A model generated the notes under the pieces. The model worked only from the letters and a program-made list of their open reading frames with translations. It searched no databases and was not told the DNA's origin. The position numbers and the translations under genes were made by a program. From Microgenomates group bacterium GW2011_GWC1_46_15 (GTDB taxonomy: Bacteria > Patescibacteriota > Microgenomatia > UBA1400 > UBA12028), in the NCBI GenBank assembly GCA_001002285.1, contig LCLX01000003.1:76915-140914 (forward strand): a DNA stretch of 64,000 bases. The letters are read 5' to 3'. Position 1 is the first letter of the stretch. Every line of letters begins with the position of its first letter. Positions 7,324 to 64,000 of the stretch are shown here, one piece after another.

Positions 7324-7785
7324 TTACAGGACAAGTATCGCAGCACCGCCGGTCACAAAAAGTAACGCTATCACACCAAGCGCCATCGCCCGGATTGTTG
7401 AATCTTTTACTTCAGCAGATAAATCCCAAAAAAATGTTTTCCGCAAAAGAGCGGGGGTATTGAGAAGGGACAACATCACTAACACGCTGTGAAGTTCTAG
7501 TCCAATCAACACACCAAATCCCTCTGCAGACCGGGTAGACGTCATCACAAAAATTGATATTAATACAAGCGCTCCAAAAAACACCGCCCGCCGGTGAACA
7601 AGCCGGATTGTTTTTCCTAACCGCTCAACTTCTTTGTATAGTGGAATCAAACGCTTTTCTTTCCACAACCGCCGCGCAGGTGCAGAATCTATTACGAGTT
7701 CATCGCTTTGCAGGGCAAATACCGTTTCAAGAAATGGCAACACATACCCTATCGCGATACCTAGTAATAAAAGAAGTCCCTTCAT
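7324..7785 (-). CDS. Hypothetical small membrane protein (about 4 TM)
   Basis: Hydrophobicity pattern only. Confidence 0.4.
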   Translation of the reverse strand: MKGLLLLLGIAIGYVLPFLETVFALQSDELVIDSAPARRLWKEKRLIPLYKEVERLGKTIRLVHRRAVFFGALVLISIFVMTSTRSAEGFGVLIGLELHSVLVMLSLLNTPALLRKTFFWDLSAEVKDSTIRAMALGVIALLFVTGGAAILVL

Positions 7786-8165
7786 GGTGTCTCCTTACTG
7801 CCCAACATTGTTTTTCCGCCCTGCCGCGCACGGCGGATCTCAGCAACTTTCCACATAAACAGTTTTCCCTTGCTCCGCGCGTTCGCATCCAACACAAAAC
7901 TTCTCGCCTGTTCTAGTATAGATCGGTCAACCGTTTTTGCCATCTTGATGTACAACGACGTGTGCGCTTCATCGTTTAACTCACGCGACAAACGATACCC
8001 AAAATCCTGAAACTCGCGCGAGATTCTGCCTCCTTTATCGTCCAACGCGAAGTTCTGTAAAACCGATGAAATAGACTGCATCCCGCCACCCCGTTTTGGA
8101 CGGGCGTCTTCCTTGACCGAAGCTAGCCCCTTACCCCGCTTCATGCGCGCCTCCACCCATTGCAA
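7782..8165 (-). CDS. Hypothetical protein
   Basis: ORF in an operon-like arrangement; no recognised motif. The true start may be the internal MQSISS. Confidence 0.3.
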   Translation of the reverse strand: MQWVEARMKRGKGLASVKEDARPKRGGGMQSISSVLQNFALDDKGGRISREFQDFGYRLSRELNDEAHTSLYIKMAKTVDRSILEQARSFVLDANARSKGKLFMWKVAEIRRARQGGKTMLGSKETP

Positions 8166-30727: not shown

Positions 30728-30733
30728 CGTATG

Positions 30734-30806
30734 TGGGAGCGCTTGGATTTGAACCAAGAACCTTGAAGGTATAAGCTTCCTGCGCTAACCGTTGCGCCAC
30801 GCTCCC
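30734..30806 (-). tRNA. tRNA-Ile (anticodon UAU), no encoded CCA
   Basis: Hand-folded cloverleaf. Acceptor GGGAGCG/CGCTCCC, D-arm GCGC-AACGGTTA-GCGC, anticodon arm GGAAG-CTTATAC-CTTCA (U33, UAU, A37), T-arm CTTGG-TTCAAAT-CCAAG, discriminator A73. Confidence 0.75.
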
Positions 30807-61663: not shown

Positions 61664-62530
61664 CTAGAGTTCTTCAATTTTGATCGTTGAAGTATCAAGA
61701 TTCTTATTTAAAAACTGTAAATATTTTTCTGTCGTTGTAATGCGGCGATGGCCGACAAGTTGGCTGACATACACAAGCGGCGTTCCCGCGGCAAGTTGTT
61801 CAACAATAAATGTGTGCCGCAAATCATTTACTTTCGCGCCCGTAATGCCGGCAAGGCGGAAGTAGCGATCAATCGCCGCACGGATGTTTCGTACAAGAAA
61901 CGGTTTGCATGTTTTTGTGACAAACAATGTTTTCTCGCGGGTTTTTGGCCGTACGGTTAAGTACTCTTGAATTGCACGAAGCGCGGCGTTATTGAGTGGG
62001 ATTGCGCGCTCACTATGTGTTTCACTATTTTTCGCAAGAATCGTGCGTTTTCCCGCATCCACATCGCTTACTGCCAAGTTAGCAAGTTCGCTGATACGAA
62101 TTCCTGTTTGTAACAATACCTCTACAATAGTGGACATGCGCCGGTCGGAGCGGCATGCGTCACGGAGCGCACGGTACTCTACTTTCGTTAAAATGCGCGG
62201 CGCAGCGTTTTCATACTTCGGGCGCTCAACACTTGAAACAGGATTCTTTTCTACAACTCCTTCTTCGTGGAGGTATGAAAAAAACGCTTTCATAGAGTTC
62301 ATTTTGCGGACTATAGATTTGTCGGTGTAGCGTTTATCTTTGAGATTTTGCGCGAATAATTCAATGTGTTCCTGCGTAATTTGCGTGGGATCAGTCATGC
62401 GTTGCGTTTCCAACTCTTCGACAAGTTGCTCGACGTCTTTGCCATATGCAAGGAGTGTTGAGGCCGCCTTTTTCTTTTTCTTTAATGCGGTGATAAATGC
62501 TGAGTGATAGTCGCGAAGCGTCTTTGACAT
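61664..62530 (-). CDS. xerC: Tyrosine site-specific recombinase (XerC/XerD family)
   Basis: Catalytic R...HxxR...Y region LRHTFIVEQL...GHRRITTTEKYLQ. N-terminal SAM-like core-binding domain. Confidence 0.8.
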   Translation of the reverse strand: MSKTLRDYHSAFITALKKKKKAASTLLAYGKDVEQLVEELETQRMTDPTQITQEHIELFAQNLKDKRYTDKSIVRKMNSMKAFFSYLHEEGVVEKNPVSSVERPKYENAAPRILTKVEYRALRDACRSDRRMSTIVEVLLQTGIRISELANLAVSDVDAGKRTILAKNSETHSERAIPLNNAALRAIQEYLTVRPKTREKTLFVTKTCKPFLVRNIRAAIDRYFRLAGITGAKVNDLRHTFIVEQLAAGTPLVYVSQLVGHRRITTTEKYLQFLNKNLDTSTIKIEEL

Positions 62531-62599
62531 AGGTGCTGTGATACACTGGGTCAGGAGATGTAATTGGGCGGATAATAACACTTATAGGACCGTTCGTCA

Positions 62600-62995
62600 A
62601 TGAAGTTTTCACAGAATTTTTCTCAGAAAAGGCCTTTTCTTTTTTCCCGAATTTTTTTTGTGATTTGGTTGATTTTTTGCGCGTCCGTGAGTGTTTCGTT
62701 GACCAAAAGCCTCTTTTCTATCGTATCGTCGCAGTCCCGCGTACGTGTTTTAGAAAAACAACACGCCGAATTGGAACGGAAAAACGCAGGCTTAGAACAA
62801 AAGATTACTAACTCCCGCACACCGTTTGCAAAAGAAAGTATTATCCGCAATGAGTTGGGGTTGCAAAAACCAAACGAGGTTGTTGTACAAGTGCCGGACT
62901 CCGCAACGCCAGCCGCTGAGGAACAAAAAAATGAAAATCCATCTGTTTCGGAGCCTATTTATCGTCAATGGATTACGTTGTTTTTCGGCAGTTAG
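62600..62995 (+). CDS. ftsB: FtsB/DivIC-like septum formation initiator
   Basis: TM, then coiled coil, then the conserved IRNELGLQKPNE C-terminal motif. Confidence 0.6.
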   Translation: MKFSQNFSQKRPFLFSRIFFVIWLIFCASVSVSLTKSLFSIVSSQSRVRVLEKQHAELERKNAGLEQKITNSRTPFAKESIIRNELGLQKPNEVVVQVPDSATPAAEEQKNENPSVSEPIYRQWITLFFGS

Positions 62996-63001
62996 CCTGG
63001 T

Positions 63002-63010
63002 ATAATGTCT
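63002..63010 (+). promoter_or_regulatory. Extended -10 promoter element TGGTATAAT upstream of the ncRNA
   Basis: Perfect TGnTATAAT read directly. TSS predicted at about 63017. Confidence 0.5.
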
Positions 63011-63069
63011 TCTCTCGCAAAAACGCGGCGTTGGCGTGATAGATTGGCGCGTAGGTTGCGAGAACATCG

Positions 63070-63346
63070 CGCGGGGTAGTGTACGGCTGCACGTGAGGCT
63101 CAAGTGGGCCACGCCCGTAGAAATACGGAGTGAATTTCGGCTATATCGGTGAAACCTTCAGGCGAAAGCACAGGCAATACCGAGGAAAGATCTCCGGAGT
63201 AATCCAGAGAAATCCGTAGAGACTATACGCCGAACTTGTCGTTAGTTTGCAAAAACTAGCAGATAAGAAGATATAGTCCGACACTCTTGGAAACAAGAGA
63301 AACAGATGCATAATCTCGCAGACAAGGTTCGACTCCTTGCCCCGCA
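63070..63346 (+). ncRNA. ssrA: Structured ncRNA with tRNA-like 3' end; best guess tmRNA (ssrA)
   Basis: A 417 bp non-coding gap sits in a compact genome. The 3' end has a T-arm CAAGG-UUCGACU-CCUUG followed by CCCCGC(A), complementary to 5' GCGGGG at 63070. Promoter lies upstream and a terminator downstream. The tag ORF is not confidently identified. Confidence 0.45.
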
Positions 63347-63357
63347 ACAAAAAAGAC

Positions 63358-63383
63358 CGCCCGAAAGGGCGGTTTTACTATTT
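63358..63383. terminator. Bidirectional rho-independent terminator (GACCGCCC-GAAA-GGGCGGUUUU on plus; hairpin plus UCUUUUUUG on minus)
   Basis: Perfect GC-rich hairpin flanked by T-tracts on both strands. Terminates the ncRNA (plus) and the PIN gene (minus). Confidence 0.7.
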
Positions 63384-63411
63384 ACTATACATAGAGTGAT
63401 TCTCCACACAT

Positions 63412-63834
63412 TTAGTACTCTGCCAACGCCACTACTTTTACTCCCAAGACTTTTTTCTGTTGATGCTTGGGATTATCAGTAATAATCACCGCATTTGTCT
63501 TTTGAGCGAGGCTTAAAAAACTCGCATCGTAAAACGTGATGTTGTGCTGCTGCGCTATATCCATTGTGTGCAACGCCTGTTCTTCGTCTTGCATAATAAA
63601 TTGAATTGGTAATGCATATACTGTTGCTAAAGAAGATTTTGCCTGAGGTGGTTCCATTTTTTTCCGAAGCAAAACATTTCCCACTTCATATTTCGCCAAC
63701 TCTGGAGCTATAAGTGTAATCCCTTTTTTCTTAACATCTTCTAGGATGTGGTCGGCGTTATCTAACCATTTTTCATCTTCACTATTGATCCATTTCACAA
63801 TAACCGAAGAATCAACAACAAAAGTTTTTCCCAT
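63412..63834 (-). CDS. vapC: PIN-domain toxin (VapC-like)
   Basis: N-terminal FVVDSSVIVKWI PIN motif. The cognate antitoxin ORF appears to start upstream of 63838 and runs off the window end. Confidence 0.65.
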   Translation of the reverse strand: MGKTFVVDSSVIVKWINSEDEKWLDNADHILEDVKKKGITLIAPELAKYEVGNVLLRKKMEPPQAKSSLATVYALPIQFIMQDEEQALHTMDIAQQHNITFYDASFLSLAQKTNAVIITDNPKHQQKKVLGVKVVALAEY

Positions 63835-64000
63835 TAATGATTCTCCCTATCTTCTGCAATCATTTGGGACAAATTTCCATGTTTTCCTTTAAATGACCGA
63901 GCGAGTTCAATGTTGTGCCATATGTCATTCCAATTAATCGCTTGTTTTTTTGCTTGAGCGTGGGGCTTAAGAATAACGTTTTCCTGTTTTATCTCGATAC

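Follow-up and report, generated by a model that had tools for sequence, protein, structure and literature searches.

Near the end of a 64,000-nt stretch of the genome of Microgenomates group bacterium GW2011_GWC1_46_15 (contig LCLX01000003.1, positions 76,915 to 140,914 of the forward strand; this whole stretch is referred to below as the window, and positions are counted from its first letter), a non-coding gap raises the question of which RNA is encoded between a divIC-like gene and a PIN-domain gene. An earlier note had described the gap as 417 bp long and as carrying a promoter- and terminator-bounded structured RNA with a tRNA-like 3′ end, for which it suggested a transfer-messenger RNA (tmRNA). 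The gap is real and spans 416 bp (62996–63411) from the divIC-like stop codon to the PIN stop codon, and it does hold a stand-alone gene that has a −10 box and a terminator to itself and whose ends pair as a tRNA acceptor stem. As set out below, the suspected tmRNA is very likely a tRNA(CAU) gene, most probably that of the initiator tRNA-fMet, split between U33 and C34 by a 208-nt group I intron.

A group I intron within a tRNA anticodon loop

At gathering thresholds, only two Rfam matches were found in the window: a tRNA-Ile(UAU) and a group I intron (RF00028; 63089–63300). The intron match scored 62.8 bits (gathering score, 50; E = 1.4e-13), covered model positions 1–253 of 253, and sits between the segments that had been read as the 5′ acceptor strand and the T-arm of the suspected tmRNA. 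Using its intron mode (-i), ARAGORN placed a cloverleaf around this match (63070–63348), the anticodon loop of which holds an insert of 208 nt. In line with the earlier note, CGCGGGG (63070–63076) and CCCCGCA (63340–63346) form the acceptor stem and GGTTCGACTCC (63326–63336) the T-arm, and the distance of 278 nt from 63070 to 63347 agrees with the roughly 277 nt estimated there.

Because group I chemistry plays no part in how ARAGORN sets the junction, the program called the gene tRNA-Leu(CAA), the 5′ exon of which would end in A and the intron in U. We rejected this junction, which breaks the group I splice rule of a U before the 5′ splice site, U(-1), and a G closing the intron (omega-G). 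Only one of the eight possible junctions provides both nucleotides, with splice sites at 63100|63101 and 63308|63309, between U33 and C34. Splicing in silico at this position yielded a 70-nt RNA that ARAGORN called tRNA-Met(CAU); the predicted exon–exon junction is GAGGCU|CAUAAUCUCG, and the predicted ligated product reads ...GAGGCUCAUAAUCUCG... The parts of the split gene are as follows.

63070 to 63100, + strand: 5′ exon from ARAGORN -i, tRNA positions 1–33, comprising CGCGGGG, the D-arm, UGAGG, C32 and U33
63101 to 63308, + strand: group I intron (RF00028), 208 nt, with omega-G at 63308
63309 to 63347, + strand: 3′ exon, tRNA positions 34–73, comprising CAU, A37, A38, UCUCG, a 4-nt variable region, the T-arm, CCCCGCA and A73

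U33 (63100) is thus itself U(-1) of the 5′ splice site. The CCA is not encoded after the 3′ exon, where the next bases are CAA. The window intron contains no homing endonuclease gene (longest stop-free stretch, 55 codons), and there is no room for one in introns of this family, which measure only 175–222 nt.

A pattern confined to the intron core, run against a single genome for each GTDB species, returned 41 loci. Both exons could be delimited in 33 of them, which together with the window make up a 34-member family. All 33 delimited loci share the host tRNA, the insertion site, U at −1 and G as the last intron nucleotide; the same 5′ exon is present in these 33 relatives, introns range from 175 to 222 nt, and U(-1) and omega-G occur in 34 of 34 family members. 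The informative record titles among the 41 loci are mostly those of Gottesman-, Levy-, Roizman-, Woese- and Shapirobacteria, bacteria of the Microgenomates type within the candidate phyla radiation (CPR).

Conserved and covarying intron helices

We derived a secondary structure by hand and counted its pairs on an alignment of the 34 introns. The inner P1 pairs, P3, P4, P7 and P9 were paired in 96% of cases, compared with 34–44% when their 3′ partners were slid by one to three columns. The elements of the window intron are listed here.

63097 to 63110, + strand: P1, exon GGCU plus intron C (63097–63101) with GGGCC (63106–63110)
63112 to 63132 (core 63115–63128), + strand: P2 hairpin with a GAAA loop, from folding
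63136 to 63141, + strand: P3 5′ strand, UUCGGC, pairing with 63229–63234
63146 to 63183, + strand: P4, UCGGU (63146–63150) with ACCGA (63179–63183), enclosing J4/5 GAAA and the P5 hairpin (63155–63174)
63184 to 63215, + strand: P6/P6a hairpin with a GUAA loop, from folding
63219 to 63225, + strand: P7 5′ strand, G-(bulged A)-GACUA, forming a pseudoknot with UAGUCC (63274–63279)
63229 to 63234, + strand: P3 3′ strand, GCCGAA, pairing with 63136–63141
63235 to 63267, + strand: P8 hairpin of 14 bp with a GCAA loop, −13.9 kcal/mol
63270 to 63279, + strand: J8/7 and P7 3′ strand, GAUAUAGUCC, matching the Rfam consensus GAAGAUAUAGUC and invariant in the family
63284 to 63299, + strand: P9 hairpin, CUCUUG-GAAA-CAAGAG, then the tail AAACAGAUG, with omega-G as its last base

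In P1, the splice-site wobble U63100·G63107 is a U·G in 34 of 34 introns, and the other inner pairs are equally constant (C-G, G-C and G-C/G-U, each 34/34). A longer P1, extended by three outer pairs into the anticodon-stem strand, was rejected, as these pairs were open in 11–17 of the 34 sequences. P3 was paired throughout (100%), with both sides changed in four of its six pairs, and P9 nearly so (99.5%), with both sides changed in three of six pairs and a GNRA loop L9 in 33 of 34 introns. P4 (98.8% paired) is invariant and hence uninformative on covariation. P7, which by analogy would hold the guanosine-binding site, was likewise fully paired and invariant and matches the Rfam consensus AGACUA...GAUAUAGUC.

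The peripheral segments were too variable to be aligned and were folded one sequence at a time. Hairpins P2, P5, P6, P8 and P9 formed in nearly every sequence, a few P5 folds being marginal. The hairpin at the P2 site was present in all 34 introns despite differing sequences, with a GNRA loop L2 in 21; the GGA/UCC closing pairs and the inner helix of P6 recur in the relatives with a different inner sequence, and every relative has a P8 hairpin of 5–15 bp. The longest intron of the family, at 222 nt, belongs to L044 (JBBTWM010000073.1) and carries an extra 7-bp hairpin after P9 (CCCCGAAGCAAUAAUUCGGGG).

Two points have to be set on the other side of the scale for the intron assignment. While five of eight sampled relatives passed the gathering score of RF00028, three remained below it. 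Moreover, P7 and J8/7 were fixed by our search pattern, and their invariance is therefore no independent evidence.

The same locus with and without the intron

To find uninterrupted genes, metagenomes were scanned for the spliced junction inside the same tRNA, with positions 11-24, 30-40 and 31-39 fixed by the search pattern. The uninterrupted tRNA was present on at least 120 metagenome contigs. Among the matches listed, ARAGORN called 112 of 116 as tRNA-Met, and five sampled genes scored 43–53 bits on RF00005 with no intron match. By tblastn, divergent xerC-like and divIC-like genes flank the same tRNA in dozens of loci, be the intron present or not. This shared synteny identifies the locus as orthologous, with the intron present or absent by lineage. 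Its distribution is patchy, since some intron-less loci are closer to the window by XerC identity (L148, 57%; L100, 55%) than many intron-bearing ones (46–52%).

Several contigs with this CPR-type locus bear the title "uncultured Gammaproteobacteria" or "Pseudomonadales bacterium" (TPA_asm), titles that look like placeholders or errors (L009, L013, L014, L017, L022, L023, L025, L035, L039, L040, L042, L045 and L047). For L038 (Chlamydiae), L028 (Eisenbacteria) and L046 (Sulfotelmatobacter), mis-binning is possible.

The host is most probably an initiator tRNA

The sequence of the spliced product suggests, with fairly good confidence, that the host is the initiator tRNA, and that the label Ile2 given to this subfamily in an existing catalogue is probably a misassignment. 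The acceptor end of the window tRNA combines an unpaired C1xA72 with G2-C71, C3-G70, G4-C69 and A73; of these, the open 1-72, G2-C71, C3-G70 and A73 are determinants for the formylase. We compared 26 distinct spliced products, in whose selection no tRNA feature had been used. C1xA72 was present in 23 and U1-A72 in three, G2-C71 in 25, and C3-G70, G4-C69 and A73 in all. The window acceptor stem, CGCGGGG/CCCCGCA-A, is identical to what we take to be that of Escherichia coli tRNA-fMet. Global alignment to the E. coli sequences assumed here was best for tRNA-fMet (score 18), with 6 for tRNA-Met and −1 for tRNA-Ile2. A C1xA72-type end, G2-C71, C3-G70 and A73 are the acceptor determinants of bacterial initiator tRNAs (PMC5389676). 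The anticodon stem reads A29-U41, G30-C40 and G31·U39 (au/GC/gu), a natural initiator variant of some mycoplasmas and alpha-proteobacteria in which the essential G30-C40 is retained (PMC5389676). As an observation on the uninterrupted genes, U1-A72 was found in 63 of 94 distinct sequences (among the matches listed, L050–L169), compared with C1xA72 in 23 of the 26 intron-bearing ones.

The remaining CAU and AUA-reading tRNAs fit this assignment. A conventional elongator-type tRNA(CAU) with G1-C72 lies 836 nt downstream of the split gene in the window genome; 102 such genes occur among the related loci listed, adjoining the split gene in many relatives. The window also encodes a tRNA-Ile(UAU) (about 30733–30806, − strand; RF00005, 65.5 bits), with 30 more among the related loci listed. 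Given this tRNA-Ile(UAU), an initiator and an elongator tRNA-Met would make up a complete CAU set. Its occurrence also suggests that these CPR lineages read AUA with no lysidine tRNA involved.

Several features pull away from an initiator. The three consecutive G-C pairs (29-41, 30-40 and 31-39) are absent, with only G30-C40 in place, and pair 11-24 is U-A instead of A-U in all 26 distinct intron-bearing genes. Finally, the tRNAscan-SE isotype-model pipeline of Williams labelled the Gottesmanbacteria orthologue L029 as Ile2 (Gba28.Ile2.2Ug).

This label speaks for the alternative that the split gene, with the same intron, encodes a tRNA-Ile2 whose CAU anticodon would receive lysidine through TilS. 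The anticodon loop CUCAUAA suits Ile2 as well as Met, and the lack of the three G-C pairs and of A11-U24 would be in keeping with it. We nevertheless regard Ile2 as unlikely, as C1xA72 (or a weak U1-A72) together with CGCGGGG/CCCCGCA-A are initiator hallmarks, the au/GC/gu stem is on record as a variant of natural initiators (PMC5389676), a separate elongator-type CAU tRNA is located next door, and a tRNA-Ile(UAU) able to read AUA is present in the window genome and in 30 related loci listed. The host tRNA of L029 itself (LCFP01000004.1, about 7616–7878) has C1xA72 and the acceptor stem CGCGGAG/CUCCGCA-A; for this reason its Ile2 label looks like the misassignment of a non-canonical CPR initiator.

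It is less probable again that the split gene is an elongator tRNA-Met and the initiator is encoded elsewhere in the genome. ARAGORN calls the product simply tRNA-Met, and U11-A24 is an elongator-type pair, but an unpaired 1-72 is disfavoured in elongators (PMC5389676), and the conventional G1-C72 tRNA(CAU) is found 836 nt downstream, and beside the split gene in relatives. 

Transcription signals and selection on the split gene

The initiator gene proposed here is bounded by the following elements.

62998 to 63006, + strand: extended −10 box TGGTATAAT, exact motif, probable promoter of the pre-tRNA
63013 to 63063, + strand: 5′ leader hairpin, genome-specific, which RNase P presumably cuts off
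63353 to 63376, both strands: bidirectional intrinsic terminator, ending the pre-tRNA (+) and the PIN operon (−)

The extended −10 box was located as had been claimed, with an exact match to the motif. A weak −35-like TTGTTT (62978–62983) precedes it with a 17-nt spacer. A scanner for two-hexamer consensus promoters did not list the TGGTATAAT promoter, because this best −35 matches the consensus in only three of six positions. We retained TGGTATAAT as no more than a plausible promoter of the extended −10 type. The relatives as a rule carry a −10 box, frequently of the form TGnTAnnnT, 14–29 nt 5′ of the same tRNA, unlike the window, in which the distance is 72 nt. The terminator, also predicted earlier as bidirectional, was detected on both strands (−17.9 kcal/mol, z = −6.9; none of 200 shuffles was equally stable), and intrinsic terminators lie just 3′ of the same tRNA gene in many relatives.

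The long hairpin previously noticed in the leader fared less well. Its arms, TCTCGCAA (63013–63020) and TTGCGAGA (63056–63063), are real, each of 8 nt and 100% complementary. A conserved functional element was not supported and we rejected it: the fold (−20.7 kcal/mol) is marginal against shuffled sequences (z = −1.6; 12 of 200 as good), the hairpin of about 50 nt has no counterpart 5′ of the same gene in the relatives compared, and the repeat has no second copy within the 64-kb window.

A long, non-conserved leader is unusual and might be taken to indicate a decaying gene, that is, a tRNA pseudogene with a non-splicing intron. Such decay is very improbable in view of the intact core elements and splice-site nucleotides, all of which are retained. 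In L021, L039 and L041, the introns are only 67–75% identical to that of the window, yet the helices are kept and the exons are 99–100% identical. Selection is also indicated by compensatory changes in P3, in P9 and in the anticodon stem, and the same sequence context recurs on 24 contigs from several samples. Pairs 26-44, 27-43 and 28-42 of the intact cloverleaf, whose halves are located in different exons, co-vary as well, which speaks for the spliced molecule as the selected product.

The tmRNA and RNase P readings

A divergent short tmRNA (ssrA), as first proposed, can for practical purposes be dismissed: tRNA-like ends, promoter, terminator and a structured internal region of about 200 nt are as in a tmRNA, but a full-length group I intron makes up the internal region, the ends and insert flanks form a complete cloverleaf with an anticodon arm, and ARAGORN in tmRNA mode made no call in the window, the region or the public copies of the locus (L001–L008). 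A covariance-model match to tmRNA, on which the earlier note had made its proposal depend, was not found, neither RF00023 nor any other Rfam tmRNA family appearing at E ≤ 10 over 62900–63450. The alanine identity pair expected of a tmRNA is G3·U70; here, pair 3-70 is C-G. ARAGORN reported no tag reading frame either, in agreement with the earlier failure to recognize a conventional one.

The search at E ≤ 10 over the same interval did not return an RNase P family, nor did RF00010 or RF00011 reach the gathering score in the 64-kb window. Three segments that had been likened to CR-I, CR-II and CR-V of RNase P (UUUCGGC, GGUGAAAC and GCCGAAC) are the P3 5′ strand, P4/J4-5 and the P3 3′ strand of the group I intron. 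The fallback suggestion of another tRNA-like RNA had pointed in the right direction.

A proposed splicing pathway

By analogy with the group I introns that interrupt tRNA genes of Anabaena and Azoarcus, the following pathway may be proposed for the split initiator tRNA gene, in which self-splicing, its chemistry, the order of steps, use of the promoter, and formylation and use as an initiator are all modelled on these systems. Transcription would start 3′ of the extended −10 box (62998–63006) and stop at the terminator (63353–63376). The intron would fold into a P1–P9 core, in which GGCU, the end of the 5′ exon, base-pairs with GGCC of the internal guide and thereby sets U33 in a U·G wobble (63100·63107). 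An exogenous guanosine bound in P7 would attack after U33. The 3′ exon begins with CA, which would then take the place on the guide of the two identical bases that open the intron (P10); omega-G (63308) would enter the G site, and ligation of the exons would create the anticodon loop CUCAUAA. RNase P would cut off the leader of about 55 nt, and the CCA-adding enzyme would complete the 3′ end.

Comparison with known tRNA introns

In the nomenclature of Williams, the setting of the window intron is "2Ug", and fMet.2Ug is among four classical bacterial cases, all of subgroup IC3 (bioRxiv 10.1101/2020.01.27.920355). The closest catalogued intron is that of L029, Gba28.Ile2.2Ug (Candidatus Gottesmanbacteria GW2011_GWA2_43_14, from the same Rifle groundwater project as the window genome), which is a seed of Williams' gpI_bact_tRNA model. 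It has the same host tRNA, site after U33 and U(-1)/omega-G, is 66–69% identical, and carries the same core strings, UUCGGCUAUAUCGGU, GCAAUACCGAGGA, UCCGUAGAGACUAUACGCCGAA and GAUAUAGUCCGACACUC. In contrast, its P2, P5, P6 and P8 differ in sequence and length, it measures 193 instead of 208 nt, its exons are 80% identical, and its catalogued host is Ile2, where we favour the initiator.

The cyanobacterial tRNA-fMet intron (fMet.2Ug, IC3; seed Tpc1.fMet.2Ug) likewise shares the CAU host type, the U33/C34 site and the splice rule. Its identity to the window intron is 45%, with the core strings AAACUCGGGGAAG and GACUGGAAGGC in place of UAUAUCGGUGAAA and GACUAUACGCC. Some cyanobacterial fMet introns are reported to contain a homing endonuclease (Bonocora and Shub 2001, as referred to in PMC3984707), whereas the window intron has no room for one. 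The Azoarcus pre-tRNA-Ile(CAU) intron (Ile2.5Ug, IC3) resembles that of the window in its compact size of about 200 nt, its CAU host, its GNRA loops L2 and L9 and its helix order (P1-P2-P3-P4-P5-P6-P7-P3′-P8-P7′-P9). It is inserted after U36, not U33, is 49% identical, and has in P5 and P8 the CCUAAG...UAUGG tetraloop-receptor motifs (seed alignment), none of which was seen by inspection in the window intron. With respect to subgroup IC3 as a whole, helix order and compact size match, and P7.1/P7.2 and P5abc are absent; identity to the seeds Tpc1, Aol6 and Sel1 is 45–49%, and the J3/4 and P7-J7/3 strings differ.

tmRNA genes whose T-loop contains a group I intron (Williams) have tRNA-like ends in common with the window RNA, and the core strings UUUAUCGGUGAAA and GCAAUACCGA of the Cbo40.tmRNA intron resemble the subfamily of the window intron. 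The latter, in contrast, is located in the genuine anticodon loop of a full cloverleaf, and the window RNA lacks the pseudoknots, tag frame and G3·U70 of a tmRNA as well as any tmRNA match.

Consequences for annotation and initiation

Since the 2020 catalogue already lists both the 2Ug setting in CAU tRNAs and one representative of this CPR subfamily, the window intron is one more case of a known type, and the understanding of how such introns work is unchanged. What the analysis corrects is annotation: an essential tRNA of the window genome looks absent because default tRNA finders miss the split gene, and a 58-amino-acid open reading frame (ORF) is annotated instead. For unnamed phyla represented by metagenomic assemblies, Williams gives a figure of 0.49 split tRNA genes per genome (bioRxiv 10.1101/2020.01.27.920355). 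Split tRNAs can make CPR genomes seem tRNA-deficient, and Lui et al. remark on the difficulty of detecting them in the circularised genomes of their study (PMC8172020). If the host is the initiator, a supposedly new class folds into the classical fMet.2Ug setting, and the initiator-like tRNA of these lineages would be one with an au/GC/gu anticodon stem and, often, U1-A72.

A broader combination is doubtful: that the split gene is the sole initiator gene of a reduced genome, that the intron represents a CPR-specific lineage separate from the cyanobacterial IC3 fMet intron despite the same site, and that CPR initiators depart from the bacterial rules (au/GC/gu, U11-A24, often U1-A72), all at once. 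Were it indeed the only initiator gene, all initiation would hinge on self-splicing of an RNA that needs free guanosine or GTP, and the supply of initiator tRNA could be coupled to the guanine-nucleotide pool.

Neighbouring genes

Three protein-coding genes adjoin the split tRNA gene in the window.

61664 to 62581, − strand: XerC/D-type tyrosine recombinase (PF00589, PF02899), conserved divergent neighbour
62600 to 62995, + strand: DivIC/FtsB-like septum-formation gene (PF04977, 44.8 bits), conserved upstream neighbour
63412 to 63834, − strand: PIN-domain toxin gene (PF01850, 44.5 bits), part of a two-gene cassette

The earlier note had pointed to the xerC-like recombinase and to ssrA 3′ ends as classic sites of island integration. 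A role of the xerC-like gene as an island marker was not supported, over 60 related loci having a XerC homologue of 40–65% identity beside the same tRNA. We rejected an island integrase with the tRNA as its attachment site, because xerC is conserved on the 5′ side of intron-bearing and intron-less loci alike. Insertion did find support by another route, in the PIN gene pair. The PIN gene and a small upstream ORF (86/128 amino acids, no Pfam match) take up the 836 nt that separate the split tRNA from the elongator-type tRNA-Met(CAU); their region comprises 63412–64000 of the window and continues to L001 10813–11659, the tRNA-Met lying about 185 nt past the window end. As the two tRNA genes are only 70–80 nt apart in the closest relatives, L021 and L041, and no PIN homologue was found in any related locus compared, the cassette looks like a local insertion.

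The 58-amino-acid ORF on record (L001, L004 and L007) corresponds to 63306–63482 of the window (+ strand; L001 10707–10883) and has no family match. Extending over the 3′ end of the intron, the 3′ exon and the terminator, it is almost certainly spurious.

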